From: Minisyncoccota bacterium
Lineage (GTDB): Bacteria; Patescibacteriota; Minisyncoccia; UBA6257; 2-01-FULL-56-20
Reading direction: 5' to 3'
DNA length: 64,000 bases
Assembly: GCA_041664245.1 (NCBI GenBank)
Contig: JBAYLC010000004.1
Coordinates: 16,932 to 80,931, forward strand
Shown: one piece after another, positions 3,676-59,204 of the stretch
Layout of the letters: every line of letters begins with the position of its first letter
Numbering within the stretch: position 1 is the stretch's first letter
Translations under genes and position numbers: made by a program
Notes under the pieces: generated by a model
What the model was told of the DNA's origin: nothing
The model's input: only the letters and a program-made list of their open reading frames with translations
The model's database searches: none

Positions 3676-3714
3676 TTTTTGCTTATTACAATGTACGTGC
3701 CCCGAGACGAGACA

Positions 3715-4743: not shown

Positions 4744-4748
4744 TTATA

Positions 4749-5426: not shown

Positions 5427-5463
5427 AATTACTGCATTAAAATATCACCTGACGAAACTCTAT

Positions 5464-6735: not shown

Positions 6736-6812
6736 ATTTATATGTTTAAATTTTTTATTTAAATTTCGTATTGGCATCATTTGATTATTAATAAAAAACT
6801 TTATCTATTTAT

Positions 6813-8024
6813 TTAAGAAAATTGCGCCGTCAATTGATAAATCGGAATTATTATCGAAAGAGCCACCAGCCCCACTAATAACCCCATGAATAAAAGCAAT
6901 ATTGGCTCCAAAAAAGAAACCAGGGATTTTATCGCCGACTCGGCTCTCGAGGCATAAAACTCAGAAAGCGTCTGTAAAAGATCTTCTAAATGTCCGGCCC
7001 TCTCCGATGCCGCAATCAAATTAGTAACCAGCTTCGGGAAAACTGTTTCTTTTCTGAAAGCCTCTCCTATTGTTAACCCTTTTGCCAAACCCTCTTCGCT
7101 GATTCGAAGCAAACTCGCCCGAAATTCAAGAACATTTACCGTCTCTGCTGCTATATTGAGCGATTGTATAATCGAAAGTCCCGCCTTCATCAACGAACTG
7201 GTTGTCGTTGCAAAACGTTGCACCGCCAACTCCCGATAAACCGTTTTGACTAAAGGTAATCGGCTAAACATTCGCTGGGCCAATTTCCGCCCCACATCGA
7301 ATTTCCAAAAAAACACTGCCGAAAAAACCACAATAATAATCAGGCCCGGAATAAATAGAAGCGCATGAGCATTTATAAAAAGCCCGATCCCAAACACCAC
7401 CCTTGAGAAAAGCGGCGGATTAATTCCTCCATCGGAAAAAACTTTCGCTATCTTAGGAAGTGCGAAAGTTACCAAAAAAATAAATATTGACATTGACGTC
7501 ACGAGCAAGATGACCGGATAGACCAGCGCCGATCGGATGCTATTCCGCAACGCTGCTTCCCTGCCAAGCGACACGCTTAATTCCTCAAATGTTTGCTGTA
7601 AATTTCCTGATGCCTCTGCGGCTTTAACTAAATTTATAAACACTGGCGAAAAAATTCTTGGATACCTTGCGAAAGCCGCATAAAATGGCTGGCCCCGCCC
7701 CAAATTGTCCCGAACCTCAAGTAAAAAGTTTTTCAGGGCTGGTTTATCAAAGTCAGAAATCAAAATATTTATTGCTGAAAGCAAATCAGTTCCCACTCGT
7801 AACATCAAAGAAAGATACCGAGTCAAAAAAATCTTGTCGGTTAAATTAATATTCCCAAAAATCCGCCGTGCCCCAAAACCCTCAGATTCTTTAATCGGCT
7901 TTACCGAAATCGGCCTCAGTTCTTTACCGGCTAGATATTGGAGAGCCTGAGTGAAATCATCGACTTCCAAATCCCCCTCGCTAATTTTTCCGCTTTTATC
8001 CGTTGCTAAATAATGAAAGAGCAT
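6813..8024 (-). CDS. pilC: Type IV pilus platform protein PilC (GspF family)
   Basis: 403 aa polytopic protein with duplicated GspF-type domains, located between the pilin genes and the PilB ATPase. Confidence 0.8.
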   Translation of the reverse strand: MLFHYLATDKSGKISEGDLEVDDFTQALQYLAGKELRPISVKPIKESEGFGARRIFGNINLTDKIFLTRYLSLMLRVGTDLLSAINILISDFDKPALKNFLLEVRDNLGRGQPFYAAFARYPRIFSPVFINLVKAAEASGNLQQTFEELSVSLGREAALRNSIRSALVYPVILLVTSMSIFIFLVTFALPKIAKVFSDGGINPPLFSRVVFGIGLFINAHALLFIPGLIIIVVFSAVFFWKFDVGRKLAQRMFSRLPLVKTVYRELAVQRFATTTSSLMKAGLSIIQSLNIAAETVNVLEFRASLLRISEEGLAKGLTIGEAFRKETVFPKLVTNLIAASERAGHLEDLLQTLSEFYASRAESAIKSLVSFLEPILLLFMGLLVGLVALSIIIPIYQLTAQFS

Positions 8025-8140
8025 AATAAAAAATCACCAATTCAAACAATTAATTCGAACCAACTCTTCTTAATTATAAACTTTTCTATAAAACTAGTCA
8101 CTAAAACATCCCCAAAGGGTAAATAGTAAAATTCTCAAAG

Positions 8141-9856: not shown

Positions 9857-9871
9857 AAAATTATTTAAAAA

Positions 9872-10543
9872 TTACTTTCCCAAAAAAAGTCCGATAAAAT
9901 CTCCCAGAGATAATTGCCCCCAAACATATTCCAATCCAAAAATCGGAAGCAACCAAATCTTTACTATGATAGCAAAAATTGCTATCGGCAACCAAAAATA
10001 AAAAAGCGGCAGCCGTCCCTTGGAAAAAATCGTGTAGACCACGGAAAACAAAACTCCAAAAATCAGAATAGCCGCCCAAAAAAACAAAAATCCCGGATAC
10101 CCTGAGAGAAAAGTCCCGAGCGCGATAAGTTCAACTTCTTCGTTTTCAAAAAATCTATTACCAAATCTTTTATTCAAAAATTTCGCCAACCGGCTTACTA
10201 AAATAGAAGCCAGAAAAGCGACTATCCAAAAAATAAAAAAATGGACAAATACATATGACAAAAAATAAGAGATCGGGGCATAAGGCGGCAAAAGGCCTCT
10301 GCTAAGCGGATTACTCTCCCAAACTTGATACTGCTTGTAAGATATATAAACATTAACTGCTACCACAATCACAAACAAAATCAACCACAAAATCTTTAAA
10401 TACTTCTTTACCGTTTCTCGGGAAAATTTTCCTTCTCTTTTTGAGTCCAAAAATCGCCGGCCCCAAAAAATCTGTGCCGCAAAAAGCAAAATCAAAGCCA
10501 CTAAATTAAAATATTGAGCTACTGCAAACATTCTCAAAATCAA
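9872..10543 (-). CDS. pilD: Prepilin peptidase (A24 family)
   Basis: 223 aa polytopic membrane protein immediately downstream of pilA and adjacent to pilB. Size and position are typical of PilD; the assignment rests on context and topology. Confidence 0.65.
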   Translation of the reverse strand: MILRMFAVAQYFNLVALILLFAAQIFWGRRFLDSKREGKFSRETVKKYLKILWLILFVIVVAVNVYISYKQYQVWESNPLSRGLLPPYAPISYFLSYVFVHFFIFWIVAFLASILVSRLAKFLNKRFGNRFFENEEVELIALGTFLSGYPGFLFFWAAILIFGVLFSVVYTIFSKGRLPLFYFWLPIAIFAIIVKIWLLPIFGLEYVWGQLSLGDFIGLFLGK

Positions 10544-12521: not shown

Positions 12522-13580
12522 ATGCTTATAAAAATGGACGAAAAAATTTATTACAATGCCATAAACATTGCCCTTGGCAGTGACTACCGAAAATTAGGAA
12601 AGTTGATAGAAAAGTCCGGCTGTTGGGAAATTGCTTGGGAAAATTTAGGTGTCGCCGAAAAAAATAAAATCAATCCGGAAAAACTTTGGGAGAAACTTCT
12701 AAGGTCAAAAATTGAGCTGACCTTAATAAACGAAAAAAAATACCCCTCCTTACTTCGCGAAATATCCTTTCCGCCTTTTGGAATTTATTCTATCGGCAAT
12801 TTTTCGGCTCTAAATCAAAAATATAAAATAAGCATCGTCGGTACCAGAAAGGCCACCGAGCAAGGCAAGGAAATCGCTCGAGAATTCGCCAGAAATCTCG
12901 GGCAAAACAATTTCGCCATAATAAGCGGTTTGGCTTTAGGAATTGACGCCGCTGCTCACTCCGGCGCCCTTGACGCTAACGCTCCCACCATCGCCGTCCT
13001 CGCCAACGGCCTTGATCATTTCTATCCCAGTTATAATTCTAAATTGGCTGAAAAAATAATCTCAAGCAATGGACTAATAGTTTCAGAATATCCAATAGGA
13101 AGCCCAACCCTCCCTTATCGATTTATAGAAAGAAATAGAATCATCAGCGGCCTTTCCGCCGGCACCCTTGTTATTGAAGCCCCCGAAGGGTCTGGCTCGC
13201 TCGCCACCACTAGATTTGCCCTTGATCAAAATCGGGAAATTTTTGTTACTCCCGGACCTCTAAAACATCCAAATTTCTCCGGCTCCCATAAATTAATCCG
13301 CCTTGGCGCCATCCTAGTTACCTCTCCTGAAGAAATTATTGAGTCTCTCGCCCCAGAAATTCTCGAGGGTAAAAACAGCCCACTAAACCAGCTAAATCTA
13401 TTAAATAGCCTAGAAGAAAAGAGAATATACGAAATTTTAAAAAACAGCGCTAAACCAATCACAGTTGACAAAATTATTGAACTATCTAATCTTAATGCCA
13501 AAATCATCAATCAAACTCTTACCTTCCTGACTATAAAGAATATAATCAGTGAAACTGAGGCTGGGTTTGTCGTTCTATGA
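12522..13580 (+). CDS. dprA: DNA processing protein A (Smf), competence-associated
   Basis: Rossmann-like DprA core (IVGTRKATEQG, ISGLALGIDAAAHSGAL, EAPEGSGSLATTRFALDQNREIF) plus a C-terminal winged-helix. The stop overlaps the topA start (ATGA). Confidence 0.85.
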   Translation: MLIKMDEKIYYNAINIALGSDYRKLGKLIEKSGCWEIAWENLGVAEKNKINPEKLWEKLLRSKIELTLINEKKYPSLLREISFPPFGIYSIGNFSALNQKYKISIVGTRKATEQGKEIAREFARNLGQNNFAIISGLALGIDAAAHSGALDANAPTIAVLANGLDHFYPSYNSKLAEKIISSNGLIVSEYPIGSPTLPYRFIERNRIISGLSAGTLVIEAPEGSGSLATTRFALDQNREIFVTPGPLKHPNFSGSHKLIRLGAILVTSPEEIIESLAPEILEGKNSPLNQLNLLNSLEEKRIYEILKNSAKPITVDKIIELSNLNAKIINQTLTFLTIKNIISETEAGFVVL

Positions 13581-23178: not shown

Positions 23179-25491
23179 CTATTTAACTAAATTCAATTCT
23201 CTCAAAATCGGATATATACTCTCGTACCCAATTACTTTTGTAATATCAACTTTCCTCATTACTTCGATAATCTGTTCCCTTGCTAGGTCATTCTGCTTAT
23301 CAAAAAAATAAGCGATTCCCAATTTTATCCCTACTTCCGGATTTCCTGGCTCCATTTCTAAAGATTTTTTGTATAGCTCTATGGCTTCTTTCAAGTGCCC
23401 AGAATCGGCAAAAAAATTCGCCACCACCAATGGTTCATGATAATTTTTCCACTTTCTCCCAAGCTCAATTGCCCTCTTTAATTCTTTATAACTCAACTCT
23501 TGATCTCCAATGACATGCGCAAATAAACCGTAATAAAAATGTCCGTCGGCAACATTTGGGTTTAAATCCAAAGCTTTCTTAATTAACTCAATGGCCCCCT
23601 TTGTGTCACCTCTTAAAGATTTCGTCTTGGCTAATGAAAACATAACTTGTTGGCGATTCGGACTCAATTCTAAGGCGATTTTTCCCTCTTTTTCAGCTTT
23701 ATCTAAAAATTCATTCTTATTAACCTCCGAAACCTCGTTATACATATCCAATAGCGCGTAATGATTATAGGCGTCCTTTGGATGCTCCGCTGTCGCTTCC
23801 TCCATCGCTACAATTGCCATTTTTACCTCGTCAGCTGAAATTGCCTCTGGTTTGTAAAAATAATTCTCCGCCACTGCCGCCGCGTAATCTCTCTGAACAT
23901 TCCACCGGTACGGACTCCAAATATCTATCGCTTTTTTAAAACTTTCCAAAGCGCCCCCAGGATTATTTTGAATGAAATCATTCATCCCTTGATACTGAAG
24001 TTTATTAGCGATTAGACTATTTACATTCAAAACATAAACCCAAACAACTCCCCCTAAAAGAACAATTCCAATCATCACATTCTTCGCAAATATATCTGGT
24101 TCGTCTCTGCCCTTTTTAAAATCAAAACCAGGCCTCTGTTCCTTTTTTTCTTCTACCTCCTTGCTCATTCGATAAAACCCGTCGATAAATCCAGTCGTAA
24201 CAAAAAACATAATTAACGGTCCAATCGTTTCAAATAAAAACAAATTTCTTATAAAATACCCAAAAACTAGAACTATAACTACTTGGCCAAGTAATTTATC
24301 TTTAATTTTTAAAGCGGAATAAATTAGAGCTCCTAAAACAAAAACATAAGAAAGCAATAAAAGCACCCCGCCAACAACCAGATATTCTAAAACAAGATTG
24401 TGAGGTTTATCAAAACGAGTTTCCTGGTAGTTGATCGACAATAAGCTTGGGTCGTAATATTTATTCGAAACAATATTGAAATTCTCAAAACCCCATCCCA
24501 ATATTGGCTTTTCTAAGAAACCTTTCCACGCCGACTCAATTGCCACTATTCTAGGCTTTAATCCTTGGTCAGAAAACGACAAATCCTTAAAACGATTCAA
24601 TCCCGGAATTGATTCCCATATACTATTCCCCTTAGTAAACCAAAACGCTCCTCCTAAAATAATAACCAATATGAAAACAGAGGCGTAAAACTTTCGGCTT
24701 CGAAAAACTCTAGTTTTAATCTCCGGTGGTCGAAAAGCGAAAAGCCCAAAAAGTGCAACTAGCGCTACTCCAAACCCAATTATATCTCCCCTAGTTTGAG
24801 TCTGAAAGAAAGACAAAACCGTAAGCAAAATCACTACTCCAAGAAAAATAACCTCCCCCCAATTTTTATTGTCGTTATTAAACCTCTCTTTTCCCGCCCA
24901 AAATTGTTTCAATAAAAAATACAAAGCGAAAAATATATTAAAAAGCAGATAACCAGCCAAGAAGCTCGGATTGCCAAAAGTGCTGCCTGGTCTTCCCGAT
25001 GCTAAATCTCCAGCAAGTAAAAAATTCGGATTACTCAATTGAATTAATCCAATAACACTCACGATCGAAGCGGAAATTAATGAAAAATAAGCAACTTTTT
25101 TAAAACTAATTTCCTTTCCTAGCGAACTAATTACCAATCCCAGCAAAATAAAATGTAGATACGTATAAACTCCCAAGGCCCTCTCTTGAGTTCCCCAAAA
25201 GCTACGAAGCGGGTCCTCGCCAAAAATCGAATTGATTATTAAGACCAACCCTAAAGTCAGAAAAGCCCAAAATATCGGCGTTAATTTCGGCCGGTATTTT
25301 TTGTCTATTATCACTAGGGAAATCCATAAAATTATTATCAACTCGCATAAAATCTGAAAAAACAAAGTTTTCGAAAAAGTATAGGGATAAACTGCCTGCT
25401 TGAGATAAAAAAGAGGCACTACTAGAACAATCGAGTAAATCAAATATCTTATAGCTTTCAGTAAATATTGCGAAATTTTTTTGTGTTCCAT
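23179..25491 (-). CDS. O-antigen ligase (Wzy_C)-like polytopic membrane protein with C-terminal TPR repeats
   Basis: About 12 TM helices N-terminally, then TPR-like repeats (AIELIKKALDLNPNVADGHFYYGL, AIELYKKSLEMEPGNPEVGIKLGIAYF). Start reassigned to the Met at 25491; the first 26 codons of the track ORF are encoded by the upstream terminator palindrome. Confidence 0.6.
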   Translation of the reverse strand: MEHKKISQYLLKAIRYLIYSIVLVVPLFYLKQAVYPYTFSKTLFFQILCELIIILWISLVIIDKKYRPKLTPIFWAFLTLGLVLIINSIFGEDPLRSFWGTQERALGVYTYLHFILLGLVISSLGKEISFKKVAYFSLISASIVSVIGLIQLSNPNFLLAGDLASGRPGSTFGNPSFLAGYLLFNIFFALYFLLKQFWAGKERFNNDNKNWGEVIFLGVVILLTVLSFFQTQTRGDIIGFGVALVALFGLFAFRPPEIKTRVFRSRKFYASVFILVIILGGAFWFTKGNSIWESIPGLNRFKDLSFSDQGLKPRIVAIESAWKGFLEKPILGWGFENFNIVSNKYYDPSLLSINYQETRFDKPHNLVLEYLVVGGVLLLLSYVFVLGALIYSALKIKDKLLGQVVIVLVFGYFIRNLFLFETIGPLIMFFVTTGFIDGFYRMSKEVEEKKEQRPGFDFKKGRDEPDIFAKNVMIGIVLLGGVVWVYVLNVNSLIANKLQYQGMNDFIQNNPGGALESFKKAIDIWSPYRWNVQRDYAAAVAENYFYKPEAISADEVKMAIVAMEEATAEHPKDAYNHYALLDMYNEVSEVNKNEFLDKAEKEGKIALELSPNRQQVMFSLAKTKSLRGDTKGAIELIKKALDLNPNVADGHFYYGLFAHVIGDQELSYKELKRAIELGRKWKNYHEPLVVANFFADSGHLKEAIELYKKSLEMEPGNPEVGIKLGIAYFFDKQNDLAREQIIEVMRKVDITKVIGYESIYPILRELNLVK

Positions 25492-25525
25492 AACCCTAAG
25501 TATAAATAAAAATAACCTAACTAAA

Positions 25526-25554
25526 AAGCACGTCCGCCTAAGGCGGACGTGCTT
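25526..25554 (-). terminator. Intrinsic terminator of the surface-protein gene (13-14 bp perfect stem)
   Basis: aAGCACGTCCGCC-taa-GGCGGACGTGCTt followed on the minus strand by TTTTTAGTT. Lies 35 nt after the stop of the 25589..28942 gene. Confidence 0.7.
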
Positions 25555-25588
25555 TCGAATTGCAATCAATACAGAATTTCTATCGAAA

Positions 25589-28500
25589 CTAAGAACCAGC
25601 TGCGTAAGAACCAGAGAACAACTGAATCGGAATACCCACGCCAGCGATTCTTACATTAACCGTACCGCCAGATTCCGCCGTAGTGTAAGTAGCATCAGTC
25701 ACCGCATTAAGGATTGCTGAAAGTCCTTGAGCCACACCGCTTACAGCAACGGCTGTATTGCTCAAAGTATTAGCCCTAAGCGTAAATGTCTTTGTAGTAC
25801 CAGCGCTGACAATATAGTTATTGAAGTCAAACGAAACTGAAGTTGTGGTAGTTGCAGACTGAGTCACATTAGTGCCGGCAGTCGGATTAAACAACGTAAA
25901 TGTGGCAGGTAACGAAAGGCTATTAGCCGAACCGCCAATAGTAACCACAAATGACTGAAGTTTAACCGATCCAAGTGGGTCCGCCGTGAAGCTAATAGTG
26001 GCCAACTCATCAGTTGTAGCCTTAGCTCTACCAGACGTAACTCCAATCGGAGTCGCCGATACTGTAAGTTTACCTCTCACAATCGTCTGAGCATTACCAG
26101 TCGCAGCAGTGAGAGTAACCGTCGAACTGTTATTCGAGGTACTACCACGAGCCACCACTACTTCTGCCGCTGTATCAAGAAGCGGGTCAGTAGAAGTTGA
26201 CGCAGCAAGCTTAAACACATGAGTAGTGTTGTCAGACGCACCGCTCGAGCTATAGTCAGACACATCGCCCTTCAGAACCAAGGTAATTGATCCAGATTTC
26301 GGAACTACGATCGGATTCTGGAAACTAAACAGGCGGTAATAACCCACACCAGCCACATCTGAGCCCTCGGTATTGTTGCTTGTTGTCGGTTCGCCACCCG
26401 TAGCCAACAATGTATTCAAATCCCTTGAATCGTACAACTTCAAACTAGCAAAGGAAGCCTTAACCGAAGGAGAAGCAACCGTCTGGAAAAGATAAAGTTG
26501 AGAAACCTTTATATCTTCAATATTGGTTGTTTCGGAGAAACGGTAAGCGGCCAAGGTATTTCCAGTTGAACCCATCACAATCTGGTTAGCTGACGGAGCA
26601 GTGGAGTCCAATGTAACAGTCAATGTTGACTGTCCAGCCACAACCACACTTTGTCCGGTTCTTGCTGTGCAAGAAACCGCAGCATAGGTCGTCGCGCCAG
26701 ATCCCGTGCAACTCGCAAGTGTTGTAGCCGCCGTATGTGTACCAGCCACCGCAGATGAAAGTATATCAACATAAACATCCACTATCTTTGTTTGTCCAGC
26801 TGGAATATTTAGTTGACCGGTAAAATTATAGGTAGCAGCCGATAAAGTCGGTTGAACTGTCCCAAATTGAGTATTACCAACCATCAGCTTAAGGTTTTGG
26901 CTGCTAGTCGTAAGGCCACCCAATGTAACCCCAATACTCATGAGGTTCACCCCTTCCGCCGTTGAAGCCGCTATTGAGTAAGAACCAATTTTAGCGTTAG
27001 TTGTGCCAGCTGAATACGTTTGAGTTCCTACTGCGCTATTTCTAGCTGTAGTAGCTGAGCTAGTAACTCTAGTTAACACGCTGCCAGTTGCCGCGCCGCT
27101 TGATGCCGTCGCGCTTGATGTCTGGCCACGCAAGTTGCTTGACCCAGTCAACACCTTTGCCACAATCGTCGTGAAATCAGCTGTGGTTTGGATATCTCCT
27201 CGTAAGGTAAGCACCCGAGTTGTATTCGCCGGAACAATGTAGCTAATCGGAGAAGAACTCTTACCAAAACAATTTGTAGCCGTTGAAGATGCATAAGTTG
27301 CAGCACTATCAGTACAATCCACTGCTAACACTGTCGCCAAATTGGAAATTGTGCTCCCAACTTGAAAACCAGCATCATCAACTAAACTAACGTTCTTGAT
27401 TTGGCTATTTACTCCGAGAGTCGCTCCCGTGAAAGTCAAAGAAAATCCGAGCCACTGAACCTTAACTGGTTCGCCAGCCGCATAAATCTTGTATTTCAAG
27501 AGAGGTGTTGCCGATCCGCCGGCAACAATATTCCCAGTCGGTGTATCAGAAGCCAAAGTGGTTGTAAGTTGTCCAGGTTGAATAGTCACCTGCATTGAAC
27601 TTGCCGAACCGCCGTTGATAGTCACCGAAACCGGTACTCCATACTGGCTATCAACTCCCCAAACATCATACGAGTTCAAGAGGTTGAAAGTGAAATTGTA
27701 GTTTGGACTACCCGCAATGTCGGCGTAGACTTGCAAATTGCTGTTTCCGGTAGAAATAACCGCCGGAGCAGAACTGAAATCAAAAAACGCCACTCCATCA
27801 GCCGGAACCATCGCTAAGGTTTGGCCAACTTGAGTACCGTTCACAAAAAGCTTCACATTCTTAATGTCGCTCTTTGTCGCCGAACCAGTCACTTTAAAAG
27901 TAATTCCTTTAAGGTTAACTGGACTGTTCGTAGCTGTAATCGTCCACTGCGAAATCATTTGATTCTGATCGCCAGCATAAACTGATGTCTGCGGTGTACC
28001 CGAAGACACAGTTAAACTCGCAATTGACGGATTTGAGACCGTAGTCGCTGTGAAAACATTTCCACTCAAGGGAAAAGCCCCCACTGGAGTAACAGCCACG
28101 TTATTGCTGTCAACTGCCGTTATATCGGTAACCGCCATCAAACCAAAAGAGATAGTGTTTCCATCCGTAACTGTTCCTGGGTCAATAGCTAATTCAACAT
28201 TCCTGGTCTGACCGGCATTAATGCCTAATCCCAAACCATTGAATGTAATCACGCCACCAGAAAGCGAACTATACTGGGCGATTACCTTACCGTTTTCGAT
28301 TAGGTATGCCGCAGAAATACCACTATCCGAAACTATACCCAACTTCTTGAATTTCAAGTCGTTGACTGTAATTCCGCCAGCATTGCCAGCTGTAAGAGCA
28401 ACTCCTAAAACAGGCAATCGCGCCGAGGAAGCAATGAAAGAACTAACTGCAGGATTCTTCGAAGAGAGTCCTACTGAAAGACCAGAAACCGGAACCGGAT

Positions 28501-28942
28501 TTGGATTCGGGTTAGGATTTGGATTCGGATTTACTCCCATCGCGTTAACAAAAGCGCGAGTCTTTGGACCAAAATAACCAGCCGCCGGAGCGATTCCGTT
28601 GGCTGCTTGGAATTTACCCAAAGCCGCTTTTGTCATTGAACCGAAATAAGCAGTCGGAGCAGTAATATTCAAATACCCTCCTGTGATTAAGAACTGCTGA
28701 AGTGAAGTTACGTCGGCACCTCTGCTTCCAAGGGTGAGGTCCTTAGTGAAGCTGTAGGAACCAGTAACTGGAGTGCCTCCTTGAGCAGTCGCCAACTGAG
28801 CATTAAGCGCTTGAATTTGCGCCATAAGCGAATTAATCATCGCTTGAAGCTCAGCTGTTGTCTGTCCATGAGCCACTGGTGTGACGCCTGCGATAACCAT
28901 CGCAAAAAGCGCCAATGAAACTAATTTTTTTCCTATATTCAT
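25589..28942 (-). CDS. Large secreted cell-surface protein: signal peptide, peptidoglycan-binding domain, (PN)n linker, long beta-rich Ig-like repeat region
   Basis: Signal peptide MNIGKKLVSLALFAMVIAGVTPVAHG. PG_binding_1-like segment (GSRGADVTSLQQFLITGGYL...GSMTKAALGKFQAANGIAPAAGYFGPKTRAFV). NPNPNPNPNPNPVPVSG linker. Roughly 900 aa that is S/T/A/G/V-rich with no Cys. Confidence 0.6.
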   Translation of the reverse strand: MNIGKKLVSLALFAMVIAGVTPVAHGQTTAELQAMINSLMAQIQALNAQLATAQGGTPVTGSYSFTKDLTLGSRGADVTSLQQFLITGGYLNITAPTAYFGSMTKAALGKFQAANGIAPAAGYFGPKTRAFVNAMGVNPNPNPNPNPNPVPVSGLSVGLSSKNPAVSSFIASSARLPVLGVALTAGNAGGITVNDLKFKKLGIVSDSGISAAYLIENGKVIAQYSSLSGGVITFNGLGLGINAGQTRNVELAIDPGTVTDGNTISFGLMAVTDITAVDSNNVAVTPVGAFPLSGNVFTATTVSNPSIASLTVSSGTPQTSVYAGDQNQMISQWTITATNSPVNLKGITFKVTGSATKSDIKNVKLFVNGTQVGQTLAMVPADGVAFFDFSSAPAVISTGNSNLQVYADIAGSPNYNFTFNLLNSYDVWGVDSQYGVPVSVTINGGSASSMQVTIQPGQLTTTLASDTPTGNIVAGGSATPLLKYKIYAAGEPVKVQWLGFSLTFTGATLGVNSQIKNVSLVDDAGFQVGSTISNLATVLAVDCTDSAATYASSTATNCFGKSSSPISYIVPANTTRVLTLRGDIQTTADFTTIVAKVLTGSSNLRGQTSSATASSGAATGSVLTRVTSSATTARNSAVGTQTYSAGTTNAKIGSYSIAASTAEGVNLMSIGVTLGGLTTSSQNLKLMVGNTQFGTVQPTLSAATYNFTGQLNIPAGQTKIVDVYVDILSSAVAGTHTAATTLASCTGSGATTYAAVSCTARTGQSVVVAGQSTLTVTLDSTAPSANQIVMGSTGNTLAAYRFSETTNIEDIKVSQLYLFQTVASPSVKASFASLKLYDSRDLNTLLATGGEPTTSNNTEGSDVAGVGYYRLFSFQNPIVVPKSGSITLVLKGDVSDYSSSGASDNTTHVFKLAASTSTDPLLDTAAEVVVARGSTSNNSSTVTLTAATGNAQTIVRGKLTVSATPIGVTSGRAKATTDELATISFTADPLGSVKLQSFVVTIGGSANSLSLPATFTLFNPTAGTNVTQSATTTTSVSFDFNNYIVSAGTTKTFTLRANTLSNTAVAVSGVAQGLSAILNAVTDATYTTAESGGTVNVRIAGVGIPIQLFSGSYAAGS

Positions 28943-50904: not shown

Positions 50905-51798
50905 ATGAACATAAACAACGCCCTCAATGACTATCTCAATTATCTCGAAATAGAAAAAAACCGTTCCCCTAAAACTCGCGAAAATTATAATCGCTATCTT
51001 TTAGAATTTCTTAAATTTGCCAAAATAAAATCCCCGGAAGATATCACCGAAGACATCGTCCGTAATTTTCGTGTTGCCCTCGCCCGAAAAAACATCAAAA
51101 AAATAACCCAAAGCTATTACGTCATTGCCCTCCGTAATTTTCTAAAATATCTCATTAAAAGAAATCTCGAAGTTCTCGCTCCGGACAAAATCGAACTTCC
51201 CAAAGTTTCCCGCCGCCAAATCGAGATTTTAGAATACCAAGACCTTGAACGGCTCATCTCCTCTCCTTCCGGCTCCGACCTTAAATCTCTCCGCGACCGG
51301 GCTATCTTAGAAACTTTTTTCTCAACCGGACTTCGACTCTCCGAACTTTGCGCTCTTGATCGCTTTCTCGATCTAAATCGCGAAGAAATATCCGTCCGCG
51401 GCAAAGGCGAAAAAATCCGTGTTGTCTTTCTCTCCAAAACCGCCATCGCCGCTATTAAAAAATATTTAGAAAAAAGAAGCGACGCCGAACAGGCTTTGTT
51501 TGTAAGTTTCACTAAAGCCAAAAATCCAAAAGTAATCGGCCGCATCACTCCCCGTGCCGTCGAACGCCTCGTGGCTTTCTACGGAAAAAAAGCCGGCATT
51601 CCAGCCAGCAAAATCAGTCCCCATAAAATCCGCCACCAGTTTGCCACCGATCTTCTTTTAAACGGCGCCGACCTTCGTTCGGTTCAGGAAATGCTCGGCC
51701 ACGCCAATATCTCTACCACTCAAATTTACACTCACCTCACCAATAAAGAGCTAAAAGAAATTCATTCGGCTTTTCACGCTCGCCGCCGGAAAAAATAA
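50905..51798 (+). CDS. Tyrosine recombinase XerC/XerD-like
   Basis: 297 aa with RHQFAT, LGHANISTTQIYTH (catalytic Tyr) and an N-terminal SAM-like domain. The size fits the Xer family rather than phage integrases. Confidence 0.8.
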   Translation: MNINNALNDYLNYLEIEKNRSPKTRENYNRYLLEFLKFAKIKSPEDITEDIVRNFRVALARKNIKKITQSYYVIALRNFLKYLIKRNLEVLAPDKIELPKVSRRQIEILEYQDLERLISSPSGSDLKSLRDRAILETFFSTGLRLSELCALDRFLDLNREEISVRGKGEKIRVVFLSKTAIAAIKKYLEKRSDAEQALFVSFTKAKNPKVIGRITPRAVERLVAFYGKKAGIPASKISPHKIRHQFATDLLLNGADLRSVQEMLGHANISTTQIYTHLTNKELKEIHSAFHARRRKK

Positions 51799-52913: not shown

Positions 52914-52918
52914 AAAAG

Positions 52919-53001
52919 TGCTCCCGAGAGGATTTGAACCTCTAACCCTTTTGGGGACAGCGTCCTAAGCGCTGCGCGTATGCCAATTCCGCCACGGGAG
53001 C
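52919..53001 (-). tRNA. tRNA-Leu (anticodon TAG)
   Basis: Minus-strand GCTCCCGTGGCGGAATTGGCATACGCGCAGCGCTTAGGACGCTGTCCCCAAAAGGGTTAGAGGTTCAAATCCTCTCGGGAGCA. Anticodon loop CTTAGGA; long variable arm. Confidence 0.85.
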
Positions 53002-53107
53002 AAAAATCAATTGATTCCTAAAACCTATCATTTCAAACCTATATTTATCAACTAAAAACCCTTATAAAATAAGGCTTCTCAGGCCATTATATCCCATCCT
53101 TCCATAT

Positions 53108-53136
53108 TTGACAAATCGCAAATTCTATGCTAGAAT
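53108..53136 (+). promoter_or_regulatory. Near-consensus sigma70 promoter (TTGACA-17-TAGAAT) for the 53216..55323 operon
   Basis: atTTGACAaatcgcaaattctatgcTAGAATatatcc, with purine-rich RBS agaaagagagaaaaaa before the ATG at 53216. Confidence 0.55.
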
Positions 53137-53215
53137 ATATCCATAAACTTCAATAGTGTTAATTGAGGTTTTAGCAATTTGAAAATTGAAAATAATCATA
53201 GAAAGAGAGAAAAAA

Positions 53216-53821
53216 ATGCCTACTATTAGTTTCCAACCGAACCCAGGAAATTCGAGGTTGAGTTTGGATCTAACCGAACCAAACAAGACCGAAGAATTAT
53301 GGGAAATCACCGTCACTGCTATTGTTTCCGACGATGGCAAGCCGGCACCAGGAATACAAGTTCAGCTCTACCATAATGGTCGAGCTATCGATTCTCCCTA
53401 TCTCACCGATGGAGAAGGAAGAACCGAGCCAAGAACCTTTTCTGATCTTGAAAAAGGTACTCACACCTTTGAAGCCATAATAGTCAGCACGAGCATTAAG
53501 GCTCGCCGAACTGTTAAACTCAAAGATGAAAGGCCAAAAAAACCGGCAAAGCTCATCGTCGATAGAGAATATGCGGGAGGCAGCAATGATAAGGTAATTG
53601 TCTTCTGCACCGTCTTAACCGACGATAACGTTCCGGTTAAAGGAATCGATATCAGAATCCTTGGGCTAACTAACCCGACATTAGCGACAACCGACAAAAG
53701 CGGCGTCGCCACCATGAAGATTAAACTGGAGAAAAATCACCGTGTGGTCGTCTTCATAGTAAAAGGAAGTCCAATTCAAAAAAGAATCCATCTATTCAGA
53801 AAGACAGGAAAAACATCATGA
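53216..53821 (+). CDS. Protein with two prealbumin-like (CarboxypepD_reg / Cna-B-like) beta-sandwich domains
   Basis: VTAIVSDDGKPAPGIQVQLYHNGRAIDSPYLTDGEGRTEPRTF and VIVFCTVLTDDNVPVKGIDIRILGLTNPTLATTDKSGVATMKI fit the D..G.P..G..V.L...TD..G motif. The track ORF begins at a TTG (53186); the ATG at 53216 is preferred. The stop overlaps the next gene's start. Confidence 0.4.
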   Translation: MPTISFQPNPGNSRLSLDLTEPNKTEELWEITVTAIVSDDGKPAPGIQVQLYHNGRAIDSPYLTDGEGRTEPRTFSDLEKGTHTFEAIIVSTSIKARRTVKLKDERPKKPAKLIVDREYAGGSNDKVIVFCTVLTDDNVPVKGIDIRILGLTNPTLATTDKSGVATMKIKLEKNHRVVVFIVKGSPIQKRIHLFRKTGKTS

Positions 53822-55323
53822 GTGTTAAATCATTTTTTGTTGGTTTGGCTGGCGATCTAGGCCTTGATTTCTTGGTCCATTCATGGCTGACCAAGCATGG
53901 GGCCGATGCCTTCCAGCATGTCGTTGAAAAGGTCACCGACGATGTTCGTGTCGAAGTGCTTTCTTACATCCAAAGTCTTCCCGACGAAGAAGCCAGAAAA
54001 AACTGGTGGAGACGTTACAAAAAGACAAATAGAAGTGGAGAGCCAATCGATACTGAAAATCGATTTATGAACCTTGCTTCGCGGATCTACCTTGCTCTTA
54101 AAGATGATCCCGATGAGCTTGAGGGGATGTTCATCCTTCTCGGCCGAATGAGCGATAATGATTTTGAAGAGTCGCTGAAAGCCGTCGAAAACGACAGCGT
54201 CAAAGTTTTCTTCAAAAAAGTGGGCGAAGCCTTCAAAAAATTCGCCCAACCAATCACCGACTCCCTAAACTCTCTCAGTACTAATCTGAAAAAAAGAAAC
54301 AACTCCAACAGAAGGAGAAAAGGCTACAAATACCAACGTAGCCGCAAGCCAGCATCAGGACTTTTCGGTTCTATTTTGGAAACAATCCGAGAAATCGGCC
54401 GGGAAATAATTTACGATGCGGCCGAACTCTCCCATCTTACCACTTGGGTATCGCGTCATGATCGCTCGGCCTTAGAAGTCTACCTCCGTAATCTAGCGGT
54501 AATCGCCGGCTTCATCATTCTTTTCCCGTTTGTCCCATTGATTATTAGAACATTGGGCGGACCGGGATGGATAGTTTCTTTTGCCGGGCTTTTCCTCGCC
54601 CTGTGTACATTTTGGTTGGCTCTAATAGCTACCCCATTAGCGATTGTGCTAGGCGCAATCCAACACGGCATTAAGGGTACCGTATCCTTGATTAAAGACG
54701 GCCCGGGAGACCTGGGGAAACGGTATGTACATTTTGTACTATGGTTCTTCTTGATTGAAACCTTCGCCTTTTTGAGCCTTTCGATCATCCCAATCTATAA
54801 CAATCCAAAACTCGTCCCGATTATTCTGTTGGCGGTGTTGGTCATTGTTACTGTCAACCTGATATTGGGAGTTGGAAACTGGTTCAAGAAATTTGCCCGG
54901 TTTTCATCGGTAGCCGTAGTCATTATCCTTATTCTCTCTCTCGTTTTTCCCCAAACAACCAATAGTCTTCTAAAGATCGAGGTTGACAAAGGAATAGCCG
55001 AGACCGTAGATACTATGAGAAATTCCTCAATCACCTCTACCGCCCAAGCTGCCCCCATCCCAAAGATAAAGAAAGTGGTGGCTAAAGCGAATCAGTGGTC
55101 GGACAAAGTTACCAATGACGATGTCCCGGCCAACTGGGAGCGTTGGATCTATTCCTCCGAAAAAACTCTAATTCGTTTTTCGGATGGGACAATCGGTCCC
55201 GCGCTAGGCAGTTATGGAGTAAGACCAGGTGCTGTTGATTTTATGTGTCCCACAGGAGAGGACACTGTAACAGTCCTGTTTCTTCAGAAAGGCATTGCCC
55301 CGCCTTCGGAAGCACCTAAATAA
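53818..55323 (+). CDS. 501 aa polytopic membrane protein with a cytoplasmic N-terminal domain and an extracytoplasmic C-terminal domain; unknown family
   Basis: About 200 aa charged N-terminal domain, a cluster of about 6 TM helices (450-900 nt into the ORF), and a C-terminal soluble domain. Translationally coupled to the upstream gene. Confidence 0.45.
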   Translation: MSVKSFFVGLAGDLGLDFLVHSWLTKHGADAFQHVVEKVTDDVRVEVLSYIQSLPDEEARKNWWRRYKKTNRSGEPIDTENRFMNLASRIYLALKDDPDELEGMFILLGRMSDNDFEESLKAVENDSVKVFFKKVGEAFKKFAQPITDSLNSLSTNLKKRNNSNRRRKGYKYQRSRKPASGLFGSILETIREIGREIIYDAAELSHLTTWVSRHDRSALEVYLRNLAVIAGFIILFPFVPLIIRTLGGPGWIVSFAGLFLALCTFWLALIATPLAIVLGAIQHGIKGTVSLIKDGPGDLGKRYVHFVLWFFLIETFAFLSLSIIPIYNNPKLVPIILLAVLVIVTVNLILGVGNWFKKFARFSSVAVVIILILSLVFPQTTNSLLKIEVDKGIAETVDTMRNSSITSTAQAAPIPKIKKVVAKANQWSDKVTNDDVPANWERWIYSSEKTLIRFSDGTIGPALGSYGVRPGAVDFMCPTGEDTVTVLFLQKGIAPPSEAPK

Positions 55324-55344
55324 AGTGTGATTCTAAAAGGGTAA

Positions 55345-55392
55345 ACCAAAAACCCCTGGAGAAACTTCTCTCCAGGGGTCTTTTTTTATTTT
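55345..55392. terminator. Bidirectional intrinsic terminator between convergent genes
   Basis: CCCCTGGAGA-aacttc-TCTCCAGGGG perfect 10-bp stem, flanked by aaaaa on the left and tctttttttatttt on the right. Confidence 0.75.
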
Positions 55393-55400
55393 AATAAATA

Positions 55401-55841
55401 TTAACCGTTTATGTCTCCCAGCACATTATAATCACCATATGGAGTTCCTCCACCCCCGGGCGTCCCGCCAGAATCACCCGAAAGAAAATTCTCAACCAAT
55501 GCTGGCAATCCCCAGGCCATTAGTCCAATCGCCATTGCCACCACCGCATAAAGTAATTGCGTCTTCGCTTTTTTTACCCGTTCTGGATCAGCCGAAGAAC
55601 CGAGATAAAGAAACCCGGCGTAAAAGACTGCCATTATCGCCGCAATCCAGAATATCCTTGCCATCCAAGTGAGAATCGTTCCAGCTAAATTAACGATTCC
55701 GGAAACGCTGGTAATCGGCGCCGTAGGCGGCGGATCAAGCGCCAGCACTCCTGTAGGAAAAATAACCCACCCAGCAAGAAGCAGTAATACTAAAACCAAT
55801 CCGTATTTTTTGAAAAACTTTGCCAATTTATTTTTCATCAT
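55401..55841 (-). CDS. VirB2/TrbC-like secretion-pilin-type small membrane protein, paralog 3
   Basis: Signal peptide (MMKNKLAKFFKKYGLVLVLLLLAGWVIFPTGVLA), then helix-loop-helix: ILTWMARIFWIAAIMAVFYAGFLYLGSSADPERVKKAKTQLLYAVVAMAIGLMAWGL. Gly-rich tail. Start taken at the Met at 55841; the track's 55994 would read through the intergenic palindrome. Confidence 0.45.
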   Translation of the reverse strand: MMKNKLAKFFKKYGLVLVLLLLAGWVIFPTGVLALDPPPTAPITSVSGIVNLAGTILTWMARIFWIAAIMAVFYAGFLYLGSSADPERVKKAKTQLLYAVVAMAIGLMAWGLPALVENFLSGDSGGTPGGGGTPYGDYNVLGDING

Positions 55842-55885
55842 AAAAAAATCAATTCCCTTCAACCCGACTTCTAATTTTTCTTTAT

Positions 55886-55910
55886 CTTGGGCGGCTATAG
55901 CCGCCCAAGA
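55886..55910 (-). promoter_or_regulatory. Perfect 11-bp inverted repeat (stem-loop) between pilin-like paralogs 2 and 3
   Basis: TCTTGGGCGGC-tata-GCCGCCCAAGA, 14 nt after the stop of 55924..56328 and 45 nt before the start at 55841. No strong U-tract, so it looks like an mRNA processing or stability element or a partial terminator. Confidence 0.5.
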
Positions 55911-55923
55911 TAAATACTTATCA

Positions 55924-56328
55924 CTATTGTCCGCTAAGACCAGTGCCAACAAGCTTCGGAATACCATAAGCCATAAGTCCAATAACAATCGCAATTACGG
56001 CGTACAAAAGAGTGTGGCTCGCTTTCTTCACTTTTTCCGGATCGCCAGCCGCCGTAAGATAAAGAAACGCTGCCCAAAAGATAAACAAAATTGCCGCTAT
56101 CCAGAATATTCTTGCCACCCAAGTAAGAATGGTTCCAAACCAATCGATTGCTCCTCCAACGCTGCTCGGTCCGGGCGTCGTGCCAATGGGCGGATTAACT
56201 TGGGTTATATCCTGAGCCATCACTGCCACCGGTCCGGCAAAAATAACCATCAAAAAGATTATCGCGCCTACCTTTAATAAATTTTTCTGCATTATTCCTA
56301 TTTTTTCTTTCTTAATATACTTCCACAA
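55924..56328 (-). CDS. VirB2/TrbC-like secretion-pilin-type small membrane protein, paralog 2
   Basis: Signal peptide (MQKNLLKVGAIIFLMVIFAGPVAVMA), then ILTWVARIFWIAAILFIFWAAFLYLTAAGDPEKVKKASHTLLYAVIAIVIGLMAYGI. Confidence 0.45.
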   Translation of the reverse strand: MWKYIKKEKIGIMQKNLLKVGAIIFLMVIFAGPVAVMAQDITQVNPPIGTTPGPSSVGGAIDWFGTILTWVARIFWIAAILFIFWAAFLYLTAAGDPEKVKKASHTLLYAVIAIVIGLMAYGIPKLVGTGLSGQ

Positions 56329-56394
56329 ACAACAGTGTGGAAAAATCGACCTTTCAAAACATCTGCTTAATTATAAAAAATTATCACCTTATCA

Positions 56395-56835
56395 TCAACC
56401 CGTGCATTGCAGATTAAAAATACTGCAAACAATTGGCACCACCCCGCCGGCAATAAGTACTACCGCGAATCCAATCACCGCGTAAAGCAGGGTTTTTTTG
56501 CCACTTTTGAACTTCTCTGGGTTCCCAGCAGCTGTAAGTATTTGAAAAGCACCTATTATCACCATTATTCCCGTGAGTGGCACCGCGATCCAGAAAAGCG
56601 TGTTCATAATATTTTTAAACACGCAAGAAAAATTTGTGCAACCAATTGGGGTCGTTAGATTTATTGTAACGCTCCCCCCGGGCCCAGTATTACTATTCCC
56701 GGGGCCACCAGTATTACTGTTTCCTTGCGCCCAAACAGTCGTATAAAAACTCAAAACCACTACCACGCTTAGCACCAAACAAATACTTAATAAAACTTTT
56801 TTCATATTTCTAAAAATTATTTTCAACTTTACCAA
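56395..56835 (-). CDS. VirB2/TrbC-like secretion-pilin-type small membrane protein, paralog 1 (more divergent)
   Basis: Signal peptide (MKKVLLSICLVLSVVVVLSFYTTVWA), Cys pair (CTNFSC), then LFWIAVPLTGIMVIIGAFQILTAAGNPEKFKSGKKTLLYAVIGFAVVLIAGGV. Start possibly at the Met at 56805. Confidence 0.45.
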   Translation of the reverse strand: MVKLKIIFRNMKKVLLSICLVLSVVVVLSFYTTVWAQGNSNTGGPGNSNTGPGGSVTINLTTPIGCTNFSCVFKNIMNTLFWIAVPLTGIMVIIGAFQILTAAGNPEKFKSGKKTLLYAVIGFAVVLIAGGVVPIVCSIFNLQCTG

Positions 56836-56856
56836 CTCTAGAATTATAACATTTTC

Positions 56857-57894
56857 CTAACCCCCTGTTTGGCAATTATACAAATGTCCCCAACAAAGAT
56901 GCCAATGATCAACTTCCCAATAATAATTCACTCCGTCGTTGCCCGTATACCAAGTATTCGGAACCGGAGTGCTTAAACCGATTTGAGAATACACGTAATT
57001 ATTAACGGACGGAGTGTTATCTATATCCACTCTGGCCTTTCCTGGTCCGTGGGTATTATGACCCACCTCCGTTCCGCCCGTCACAATTAAATCGCAACTC
57101 GGGCAAGCGTTTTTAATCGCCTTAAGTCCGTCAACTGCCGACCATGGCAATCCCAGCAAACTCGTACAACTAGGATTACTGATATCATTACAATTACCGC
57201 TACTATGGATTTTGATCCCCGCCGCCGTAAGTATCGCTCTAATCGTTGCGTCATCATTACCAGTCCCTCCAGGCAACTGCCCTGTTCCCGTTGCATTATT
57301 TCCCGTGCCGTTATTTCCAGTACCATTATTCCCCGTGCCATTATTTCCGGTGCCCGCCCCACCTAAACCACCGCTCCCCATCGGCGGCGGGGTACAAACA
57401 ACCGTTCCCCAACCGATCTTTCCTTGCCCCTGCCCAGCAAAAAGACCCAAACCCCAAATAAATGTATTAATAATTAAAAATGAACCTACACCAAGCGCCG
57501 CTCCAATAATCGCTCCAGTCAAAATTTTCTTTCCTCGCGATATCCCCGCTGGTGATCCCTTTTTCCCGCCCTCTAAAATAGTTGACGCTCCGCCACTTGT
57601 TAAAATTGTGAGTCCTCCCCACATCACCATGATCGGCACAATAATAAAAAGAAGAATGGTAAGCGCGAAATAAACCACTCTTTGCCCCAAATCCATCAAG
57701 TCGCATAAGCTCTGGCAAGATTGCTCTTGGCACTGCGGCGGCACCAAACCGTCAGTTGCCCAAAATCCGGCCGGCCAAAGAGAAACCTCTCCGTGCGCCA
57801 CTTGCGGCACTATCAAAAAAACCAGGAAAAAAATTCCGGTGAGCACTAAAGGAAAAAACTTCCAAAATTTTCCCATTAATATAAATTGTAGCAC
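56857..57894 (-). CDS. Fusion protein: N-terminal secretion-pilin-like domain, (GTGNN)4 linker, C-terminal Cys-rich LAS-type (M15/M23-like) Zn-peptidase-like domain; putative peptidoglycan hydrolase
   Basis: N-terminal signal plus helix-loop-helix (VVYFALTILLFIIVPIMVMWGGLTILTSGG...GKKILTGAIIGAALGVGSFLII). GTGNNGTGNNGTGNNGTGNNATGTG linker encoded by 15-bp tandem repeats (57280..57345). C-terminal HNTHGPGKARVDID and EVDHWH motifs, reminiscent of the HxxGxAxD and HxH zinc ligands, plus Cys pairs. Confidence 0.45.
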   Translation of the reverse strand: MLQFILMGKFWKFFPLVLTGIFFLVFLIVPQVAHGEVSLWPAGFWATDGLVPPQCQEQSCQSLCDLMDLGQRVVYFALTILLFIIVPIMVMWGGLTILTSGGASTILEGGKKGSPAGISRGKKILTGAIIGAALGVGSFLIINTFIWGLGLFAGQGQGKIGWGTVVCTPPPMGSGGLGGAGTGNNGTGNNGTGNNGTGNNATGTGQLPGGTGNDDATIRAILTAAGIKIHSSGNCNDISNPSCTSLLGLPWSAVDGLKAIKNACPSCDLIVTGGTEVGHNTHGPGKARVDIDNTPSVNNYVYSQIGLSTPVPNTWYTGNDGVNYYWEVDHWHLCWGHLYNCQTGG

Positions 57895-57896
57895 AT

Positions 57897-59204
57897 TTAA
57901 CTGCCCAACCTCGCCGCTTTCATCACCGCATTGATCTGATCCTGCGCCTGGCCCAAAGCCCTAAAAGAATCCGTTTGCCCCATTAGGACATTCGCAATCG
58001 CTCCTGAAAAAATATTTTTTATCTGCCGGTCATCGGCTTGCGCCCAAGAACGGGCAATGAGGGCTTGGCGGGCAAAAATTCCGATATCCGGATCATTTTT
58101 TTTCTCGTCAATAATTGATTTCAAAGCTGGCGACCGATTAGTGCCGCTAAGATAATCATGGGAAACCGCCGGCGTTGTGGCCAGATAAATAATAAAATCC
58201 CAAGCCGCCGCCGGCGCCCGGCTCTGTTTAGAAACAGTCAGTCCTCTATAGTTAGCATAAGCAATCGATCTTTCCGCTCCCGTCGGTTGGGGCGCCGCCG
58301 CGGCCGCAAAATTAAGAAATGGATTTTTATTCTTCACTAAATTAAACGTGCTTTGATATCCGAAAATCATCGCCGTTCCCTCGCTCGAAAAACTATCAAT
58401 CGCGTTTGGCTGGGTGTCACCCCATGTATAAAACTGGGAATAAGGATTAGCAAAGCTTAAATAAAAATTAAAAGCCGCCATCCCTTTCCCGTTCTTTCCA
58501 CCATCAGAAAAAACCGCCGCGTATCCCTTTTGGTCTAACATCTCGGTGCCATTTTGGAGCATAAGTAAATTTAGTAAATCCACTGCTCCCGGAATAGTTT
58601 TTTCTGACCCCCCAATTGCCGCGCCGGCTATTTTAATCCGGTCGCCGCTCTCAATTTTTCTAAGCGCCGCCACGTCCGATTGAAACTCATCCCAAGTTTT
58701 CGGCGGATAAACAATTCCTGCCTGGTCAAAAAAATCCTTGTTATATAGAAGCGAAAGCGTATCGATATAAAGCGGCAAAGCCCATATTCTTCCGTCTTGA
58801 ACAAAATCCTGCTCCACCACTTGCGGAAAATCCGATCTTAGCTGGGTCAGCAAATACTGTGTCGCCGCCGCTGGTTGCATTTTATTTTTTTGCCTTGCCA
58901 CCGATCGATTACCAACCATAAAGATATCCGGCCCAGTCCCGGCCGCTAACGCGTCAATAAGCAGGCTATCATAGTTAGTCTCGCTCACTTTTTGATACTT
59001 AACTTTTATGCCGGTGCGAGATTTTTGGTAGGATTCAATGGCTTTATCAAAAACCGGCTTATCATCAAAACCCCACATCAAAAGATTGGCCGGCGGCAAA
59101 ACCGGTCCGTTCTGGCGCAAATTAGAAAAAACAACTATCAGCAAAACAATGATAAAAATAAAAACTCCTCCAATAATCAAAACTTGTTTTTTCGAAAACT
59201 TCAT
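57897..59204 (-). CDS. ABC transporter extracellular solute-binding protein (family 1, sugar-type)
   Basis: N-terminal membrane anchor/signal, about 430 aa periplasmic binding-protein fold (WGFDDKP...LPLYIDTLSLLYNKDFF). Confidence 0.65.
   Translation of the reverse strand: MKFSKKQVLIIGGVFIFIIVLLIVVFSNLRQNGPVLPPANLLMWGFDDKPVFDKAIESYQKSRTGIKVKYQKVSETNYDSLLIDALAAGTGPDIFMVGNRSVARQKNKMQPAAATQYLLTQLRSDFPQVVEQDFVQDGRIWALPLYIDTLSLLYNKDFFDQAGIVYPPKTWDEFQSDVAALRKIESGDRIKIAGAAIGGSEKTIPGAVDLLNLLMLQNGTEMLDQKGYAAVFSDGGKNGKGMAAFNFYLSFANPYSQFYTWGDTQPNAIDSFSSEGTAMIFGYQSTFNLVKNKNPFLNFAAAAAPQPTGAERSIAYANYRGLTVSKQSRAPAAAWDFIIYLATTPAVSHDYLSGTNRSPALKSIIDEKKNDPDIGIFARQALIARSWAQADDRQIKNIFSGAIANVLMGQTDSFRALGQAQDQINAVMKAARLGS

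Follow-up and report, generated by a model that had tools for sequence, protein, structure and literature searches.

Three VirB2-like pilin paralogs and a pilin-peptidase-like fusion: a probable satellite of a type IV secretion system in a Patescibacteria chromosome

This work concerns a locus within a 64,000-nucleotide stretch of bacterial DNA (contig JBAYLC010000004.1, positions 16,932 to 80,931 of the forward strand; "the window" below), which comes from a metagenome-assembled genome (MAG) labelled at the NCBI as Candidatus Paceibacterota bacterium, a member of the candidate phyla radiation (CPR, or Patescibacteria). On its minus strand the locus encodes a fusion protein (D), in which a VirB2-like pilin domain is followed by a putative peptidase domain, and three small VirB2-like pilins (C1, C2 and C3); a plus-strand operon of two genes (A and B) converges on this array. 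We propose that the locus is probably a chromosomal satellite of the Patescibacteria type IV secretion system (T4SS), and our best guess for the A-B operon, its conserved companion, is that it provides this system with an accessory membrane adaptor. An earlier note, made from the nucleotide sequence alone, had given the gene coordinates, a promoter, the overlap of A and B and the convergent four-gene array, all of which are present as described, and had offered two options, a part of a T4SS whose ATPases are encoded elsewhere or a lineage-specific surface system. The former is the better one: in 14 CPR loci the same type of fusion lies 3' of virB4, and the window itself contains no VirB4 gene.

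C1 (146 aa; 55401..55841), C2 (122 aa; 55924..56292) and C3 (136 aa; 56395..56805), all on the minus strand, score 28.8, 33.4 and 39.2 bits, respectively, against the PF18895 (T4SS_pilin) profile, whose gathering cutoff is 26.6 bits, and are 31-48% identical to each other, C1 and C2 being 48% identical. According to a hydropathy scan, each of them, like the N-terminal part of D, comprises a signal peptide and two transmembrane (TM) segments with a short basic loop. The loops of the three paralogs read DPERVKKAK, DPEKVKKAS and NPEKFKSGKK (D/N-PE-K/R..KK) and are followed by LLYAV, which is the common layout that the earlier note had recognized, and the proteins have the size and topology of VirB2-type pilins (~100-150 aa, two helices, basic loop). 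Because they pass the PF18895 cutoff and their topology fits VirB2, their assignment to the VirB2/TrbC superfamily of pilins, put forward in the earlier note, is supported at the sequence level. They also approach NF045849, the pilin-like family of Mycoplasma integrative conjugative elements (ICEs), with 36-37 bits for C1 and C2 (37.2 bits for C1), short of the cutoff of 40 bits. The mature N-terminus of C3 is rich in Gly, Asn and Thr; repeats of this kind, which resemble the linker of D, occupy residues 27-44 of C3 and are also found in a homologue from locus L006 (product of 3790-4206; related loci in other genomes are named by L and a number), and such stretches could represent surface segments that vary or are modified.

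D (339 aa; 56857..57876, minus strand) is composed of three parts. The N-terminal part (aa 1-150; 57427..57876) consists of a signal peptide and a divergent VirB2-like two-helix pilin domain, with TM segments at aa 60-96 and 117-148 in the hydropathy scan. D has no match of its own in Pfam; its residues 55-150 are recognized with 19.7 bits (E 4e-8 for a single target) by a hidden Markov model (HMM) built only from the stand-alone pilins of other loci, and most homologues of D carry precomputed PF18895 or PF04956 matches across the aligned region. The linker (~aa 151-207; 57256..57426) is Gly-rich and includes a 15-nt tandem repeat (x4.7; 57285-57354) encoding GTGNN repeats. It leads to the C-terminal domain (~aa 208-339; 56857..57255), a putative zinc peptidase of the LAS type (Hedgehog/DD-peptidase fold), which follows the second pilin helix and is therefore predicted to lie outside the membrane, so that its location should be extracellular.

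The model of the C-terminal domain finds its best structural matches among the LAS metallopeptidases (M15 VanX/VanY/DD-carboxypeptidase, MepA of the M74 family and the N-domain of Hedgehog), with phage L-Ala-D-Glu peptidases and LdcB ranking lower. Five residues (Glu270, His273, His276, Asp284 and His324, in the numbering of full-length D) are invariant across CPR, Actinomycetota and Deinococcus. The stretch between His276 and Asp284 reads HxxGxAxxD in CPR and HxNGYKxD (x6) in Actinomycetota and elsewhere, the M15 signature HxxGxAxD being close, while His324 lies within HWH or HWD, the C-terminal HxH or HxD motif; in sequence terms, the domain contains the metal-ligand pattern of His...Asp and a C-terminal His. 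It also possesses a conserved Cys pair and an extra invariant motif, TGGTExGH, and other proteins combine it with PG_binding_1, PG_binding_3, GH25 lysozyme or SLT domains. The idea of a pilin-enzyme fusion is borne out insofar as the C-terminal domain models as a LAS/M15-like enzyme fold with conserved metal-site residues. The more specific suggestion of a VirB1, M23 or CHAP hydrolase is not, as no Pfam peptidase model matched: D contains no SLT/lysozyme-like or CHAP Pfam domain, no curated M15, M23 or VanY sequence model recognized it, and its fold matches are LAS. By membership D is therefore not a VirB1-type hydrolase, although it may do the same job.

When one genome of each species was scanned, at least 459 places that encode the C-terminal domain of D were located, and the 80 best of these 459 loci were scanned with local HMMs for T4SS genes. 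All 26 CPR loci among them join the domain to a pilin domain, and the fusion, which had been thought unusual, recurs in at least 26 species-level genomes; in Actinomycetota and Deinococcus the domain stands alone (about 170-200 aa) or forms part of wall-binding proteins. In 14 CPR loci (L003, L017, L022-L026, L028, L029, L032, L033, L043, L044 and L074) genes for a VirB6-like protein, PrgI, a TraC-like protein and VirB4 are followed, 1.0-3.3 kb further on the same strand, by the pilin::LAS fusion. These comprise 13 of the 26 scanned CPR loci and the Niyogibacteria locus L003, of which L004 and L005 are further copies. Eight other fusion loci, for which 6.8 kb or more of upstream sequence is available, contain no VirB4, as is the case in the window, and several of the VirB4-less loci then carry further pilin genes (five in L036).

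Some of the labels of the genomes concerned call for comment. MAGs titled "uncultured Bdellovibrionales bacterium" (L017-L020, L027 and L034) bear CPR-type pilin::LAS fusions, and one of them (L017) has the full CPR-like order of VirB6, PrgI, TraC-like and VirB4 genes; the taxonomy given for these assemblies may be incorrect. Outside CPR the domain is found in loci within the range L030-L091 (e.g. L069 9869-10381, L079 7892-10402 and L063 8672-10399), in Streptomyces, Kribbella, Nocardioides, Amycolatopsis and Deinococcus, in some cases fused to GH25 and PG_binding_1/3. RefSeq names these proteins "hypothetical" or "peptidoglycan-binding", and so are named the only plasmid matches of a tblastn search with the C-terminal domain (proteins of Streptomyces and Deinococcus); the same search against phages gave no match.

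The convergent operon encodes proteins of a different kind. A (201 aa; 53216..53821, plus strand) contains two Ig-like/prealbumin-like beta-sandwich domains, as the earlier note had it, with a Big_1 match of 37 bits (cutoff 34.9) and matches to bMG3, MG4 and CarboxypepD_reg below their cutoffs. Its gene joins that of B (501 aa; 53818..55323, plus strand) in an ATGA overlap, with the start of B within the end of A. B is predicted, from hydropathy and the positive-inside rule, to comprise a cytoplasmic helical N-domain (aa 1-180), ~5 TM helices (aa 217-385) and, on the outside, a small beta domain at the C-terminus. No family match was obtained for B in any library searched, its model matched only generic helical bundles, and a word-indexed homologue search retrieved B alone. 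An exhaustive search, however, found 132 relatives, so that B is not the family-less protein it had been taken for. Most of these relatives are split into a gene for the N-domain (about 160-200 aa) and a gene for the membrane part (about 310-340 aa), and a few are fused as B is.

The earlier note had proposed a search of related genomes for conservation of the block, and there it is found, in addition to the VirB4 linkage of the fusion in the 14 loci. The order xerC, A, B, convergent pilin array, pilin fusion, solute-binding protein (SBP), gyrA recurs in L006, L012, L093 and L095 and partly in L009, the gyrA-SBP-D order being common to the window, L006, L012 and L093. Homologues of A are found at the corresponding place in L095 (63% identity, E 2e-77; B is split here), L012 (E 2e-20) and L093 (E 3.5e-10). 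In L006, D is 51% identical and a fragment of B is 34% identical (E 5e-33), whereas the run of L093 has at least five PF18895-positive small pilin genes among eight gene calls, and two long pilin-domain proteins. In L095 a gene of the LAGLIDADG type (8687-9337) lies just 5' of A and a GIY-YIG gene (12856-13113) within the pilin array; both look like homing-endonuclease-like insertions into the module.

Away from this chromosomal position, in L094 (10001-14599) and L099 (1040-6020), B-family membrane proteins of 481 and 644 aa are encoded directly 5' of VirD4-like coupling proteins of 1008 and 1022 aa, which contain TrwB_AAD_bind and TraG-D_C domains; in L099 the genes overlap. This adjacency, seen in two loci only, provides another, independent link to the T4SS. 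The neighbours in L094 (HTH, RuvC and methyltransferase genes) resemble those of a mobile element.

Taken together, these data allow us to outline how the locus could work. The minus-strand operon would run from 57876 to 55401, possibly continuing from gyrA-SBP, and express the fusion D first and then the three pilin paralogs. Each pilin, as judged by its sequence and predicted topology, would enter the membrane by way of a Sec-type signal peptide and form a two-helix hairpin there, the short basic loop facing the cytoplasm; by analogy with known T4SSs, and in line with what is published on CPR, these proteins would make up a membrane pool. A VirB4/VirB6/PrgI machine, which we assume to be encoded elsewhere in the genome, would extract and polymerize them. 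The pilin-anchored peptidase may cleave peptidoglycan, in its peptide stems or cross-links, at the site of assembly or contact, and thereby take the part of the VirB1-type hydrolases of other T4SSs, and the paralogs could supply structural or host-range variation. It is tempting to go further and to consider D as built into the filament, at its tip or base, carrying a peptidoglycan-cutting enzyme to the wall of the host, with A-B as a hitherto unrecognized accessory module, the membrane-protein family of which also pairs with VirD4-like coupling proteins; we regard this extended version as rather improbable.

Several results weigh against the assignment of the locus to a T4SS. The 64-kb window contains no VirB4, VirB6-like, PrgI, TraC-like or coupling protein (T4CP, type IV coupling protein) that could be detected with Pfam on the large open reading frames (ORFs) or with phmmer and CPR queries, and no experimental pilus of a CPR T4SS is reported in the literature examined. 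For the enzymatic half of D, the CPR-type spacing from His to Asp is x7, compared with x6 in M15 enzymes; D and 26-27 homologues match nothing in Pfam, NCBIfam or PHROG (E up to 0.1-1); Foldseek of the C-terminal domain against the PDB gave no match, and neither did single-sequence and profile searches of the PDB sequences. Because these other methods (PDB Foldseek, profiles and family libraries) lend no support to the fold matches, we consider the prediction of a LAS-type peptidoglycan peptidase quite likely but not established. As for the companion operon, B resembles neither VirB6 nor TrbL by profile or by fold, and neither A nor its syntenic homologues in L012, L093 and L095 have a signal peptide or TM segment in the hydropathy scan. 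With the export signal and TM segment absent, A is not obviously an envelope protein, and the view of A-B as an envelope partner was not confirmed. Finally, A-B is conserved at a single position of the chromosome and within a single clade, and this may reflect inherited gene order instead of a functional link. An export-less A is odd in its own right, since Big_1/MG-type domains usually lie outside the cytoplasm; perhaps A stays in the cytoplasm, or it leaves by a route other than Sec.

The absence of any T4SS ATPase or channel gene from the window could be taken to mean that the locus is a self-contained, lineage-specific pilin surface system that functions independently of a T4SS, with B as the platform, A as its cytoplasmic partner and D as the wall-opening enzyme. 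The retention of xerC, A-B and the pilins-D-SBP-gyrA block as a unit in L006, L012, L093 and L095 would fit such a system, as would the eight fusion loci that are likewise without VirB4 in their upstream sequence. However, all known VirB2-type pilins depend on an ATPase of the VirB4 family, and no NTPase domain is present in B; moreover, the same fusion family resides within VirB4 clusters in 14 loci, and B-family proteins adjoin VirD4-like T4CPs, which are parts of T4SSs. We consider a self-contained system unlikely.

Another explanation does without a filament, and regards C1-C3 as small two-helix membrane proteins and D as a hairpin-anchored autolysin that serves growth or division of the cell's own wall. 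The PF18895 scores of 29-39 bits are modest, no pilus has been demonstrated for a CPR T4SS, and outside CPR the LAS-like domain belongs to ordinary wall proteins with PG_binding and GH25 domains and no T4SS context, all of which would agree with this explanation. It does not account for the repeated tight placement of the fusion 3' of virB4 across CPR classes, nor for the essentiality of the pilin arrays of the T4SS cluster in S. epibionticum (PMC10633639), and the diversification of paralogs is typical of surface-exposed subunits; we find the autolysin explanation doubtful. Least probable by far is a remnant of an integrated conjugative element beside tRNA-Leu and an integrase, for although the tRNA gene and a tyrosine recombinase gene (50905..51798) adjoin the locus and C1-C3 are near the NF045849 family, the recombinase is XerC/D-like and kept with the S15-PNPase order in L012, L093 and L095, the GC content of 0.41-0.45 is unremarkable for the window, the flanks are housekeeping genes (gyrA, PNPase), and we reject this origin because the flanking gene order is conserved and relaxase and T4CP, like VirB4, were not found in the window.

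The satellite of a T4SS, which we prefer, is embedded in an ordinary chromosomal neighbourhood. The six ORFs were confirmed, with starts trimmed to agree with public gene calls (B is WCX12_03350 and D is WCX12_03370, with 100% identity). Upstream of A-B, a putative sigma-70-type promoter, TTGACA-17-TAGAAT with a TG-extended -10 element (53108..53136, plus strand; a consensus match only), agrees with the consensus at 11 of 12 positions; it is one of two such sites in a 6.4-kb scan and the sole one with TG. The operon had been said to come after tRNA-Leu(TAG). That gene (52918..53001) does lie beside A, but on the minus strand, divergent from it and with a near-consensus promoter-like site of its own (TTGTCA-17-TATAAT, 53114..53086, minus strand), so that two promoter-like sites stand back to back within the shared 50 bp of 53086-53136, directed toward A-B and toward the tRNA. 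The two convergent operons are separated by a hairpin resembling a bidirectional intrinsic terminator (55352..55379; 11-bp stem with 7 GC pairs, A-run 5' and T-run 3'); apart from the tRNA, an Rfam search of the region yielded only sub-threshold matches on this hairpin. A defence system was also considered and ruled out, PADLOC having returned no hits.

Upstream of D, at a distance of 20 nt, ends the gene of an SBP_bac_1 solute-binding-type protein (435 aa; 57897..59204, minus strand; Pfam E 3.6e-27). It may be co-transcribed with D, and its membership in the module is uncertain; its neighbours on either side, gyrA and D, are not ABC-transporter permeases. The surrounding genes of the window are housekeeping ones (gyrB, topA, clpB, ftsK, recA, PNPase, S15, xerC-like and gyrA). 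Elsewhere in the window, two large envelope proteins are encoded side by side: a protein of 1117 aa (25589-28942), in which only an N-terminal PG_binding_1 domain is recognized and the LAS-domain HMM is negative, and a protein of 796 aa (23179-25569) with Wzy_C (O-antigen ligase-like) and TPR domains. The minus strand also carries a type IV pilus (T4P) cluster (5464-9856, probably 1587-10543), which is distinct from the VirB2-like pilins and has no relation to them. Among its products are a PilB-type ATPase (8141-9856; T2SSE, E 5e-119), the platform protein of the PilC type (6813-8024; T2SSF) and a protein of 438 aa (5464-6780) with an N-terminal methylation motif and fn3 domains.

The claim of novelty made in the earlier note is unsupported. 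Paralog arrays of this sort are neither new nor unusual, since 441 of them, with 2-11 VirB2-like genes each, have been published (Quinonero-Coronel et al. 2025, PMC12102498) and that of S. epibionticum is essential (PMC10633639), and the locus is a further example of a published phenomenon, which by itself adds little beyond one more case of patescibacterial pilin arrays. On the other hand, the fusion and the A-B companion operon with its coupling-protein link, neither of which is mentioned in the patescibacterial T4SS literature as far as a limited text search covered it, deserve attention at the level of families. A peptidase on a pilin anchor, encoded beside virB4 in different CPR classes, would stand in for the "missing VirB1" (Quinonero-Coronel et al.) and is a candidate for how CPR cells open the wall, be it their own or that of the host. 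If the fusion were indeed part of the filament, the essential CPR T4SS would be a wall-breaching device for epibiotic feeding. A family model for the LAS-like domain, encoded in at least 459 places including genomes of Streptomyces, Kribbella and Deinococcus, would improve annotation.

The published data provide a close frame of reference. VirB2-like pilins (PF04956/PF18895) are known from 1,948 VirB4-bearing Patescibacteria assemblies, near virB4 in 1,135 and not in 813 (PMC12102498). The array described here resembles the published ones in its tandem divergent PF18895 genes, in the monoderm CPR genome, in the chromosomal location, in the lack of a relaxase and in having no virB4 next to it, as is often the case. 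The identity of its members (31-48%) compares with a mean of 25% and a maximum of 54% in the published arrays (PMC12102498). Unlike those, it begins with a pilin-peptidase fusion, its neighbours are gyrA-SBP on one side and the A-B operon on the other rather than dnaA/virB4, and it comes from a Paceibacterota MAG, whereas the published arrays are most abundant in Microgenomatia and Saccharimonadia (PMC12102498). Among pilin-like proteins of other bacteria, Mbov_0395/MMCAP2_0565 of Mycoplasma ICEs (NF045849) share with C1 and C2 the small size, the two helices, the VirB2-like character and an origin in wall-less or monoderm bacteria; the differences are that C1 and C2 score below the cutoff of 40 and lack an ICE context.

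With regard to the enzymatic part, a VirB1 homologue is absent from most VirB4-bearing Patescibacteria genomes (PMC12102498). VirB1 (SLT) and PrgK, TraG of pIP501 and CD419 (lysozyme-like and CHAP) are, like D in CPR, encoded with T4SS genes, and D may share their job of opening peptidoglycan locally. D is predicted to be a LAS metallopeptidase and not a lytic transglycosylase, muramidase or CHAP enzyme, and it is mounted on a pilin hairpin, whereas the others are soluble or have a simple TM anchor. With the LAS metallopeptidases (M15, MepA of M74 and Hedgehog) the domain of D has in common the His...Asp motif, the terminal HxH/D and the association with peptidoglycan-binding modules; it differs in the lack of an M15/M23 profile match and in the addition of TGGTExGH, the Cys pair and, in the CPR type, the x7 spacing.

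Among the nearest known systems is that of S. epibionticum, the only genetically tractable Patescibacterium, in which the T4SS is essential, its role being called unknown in reviews (PMC11665869). Transposon sequencing (Tn-seq) found the T4SS cluster, including a series of pilins, to be essential (Wang et al. 2023, PMC10633639), as repeated in a 2025 review (PMC12857230). The essential proteins listed for the cluster include the small proteins SEML1_0004 (prealbumin-like) and SEML1_0005 (Ig-like, exported), SEML1_0006 (lysozyme), SEML1_0010 (PrgI) and the six-gene PF18895 pilin array SEML1_0014-0019 (PMC10633639); the peptidase and lysozyme homologues 3' of virB4 are likewise listed as essential (PMC12102498). 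The counterpart of D among them could be SEML1_0007, an essential protein of 1113 aa encoded directly 3' of VirB4, with a C-terminal ECOD Hedgehog/DD-peptidase domain (PMC10633639). It is three times as long as D, and a pilin domain is not annotated for it in the supplementary tables. By annotation and position alone, however, SEML1_0007 shares with D the predicted fold class of the C-terminal domain, and with the homologues of D in the 14 VirB4-linked loci its place relative to virB4.

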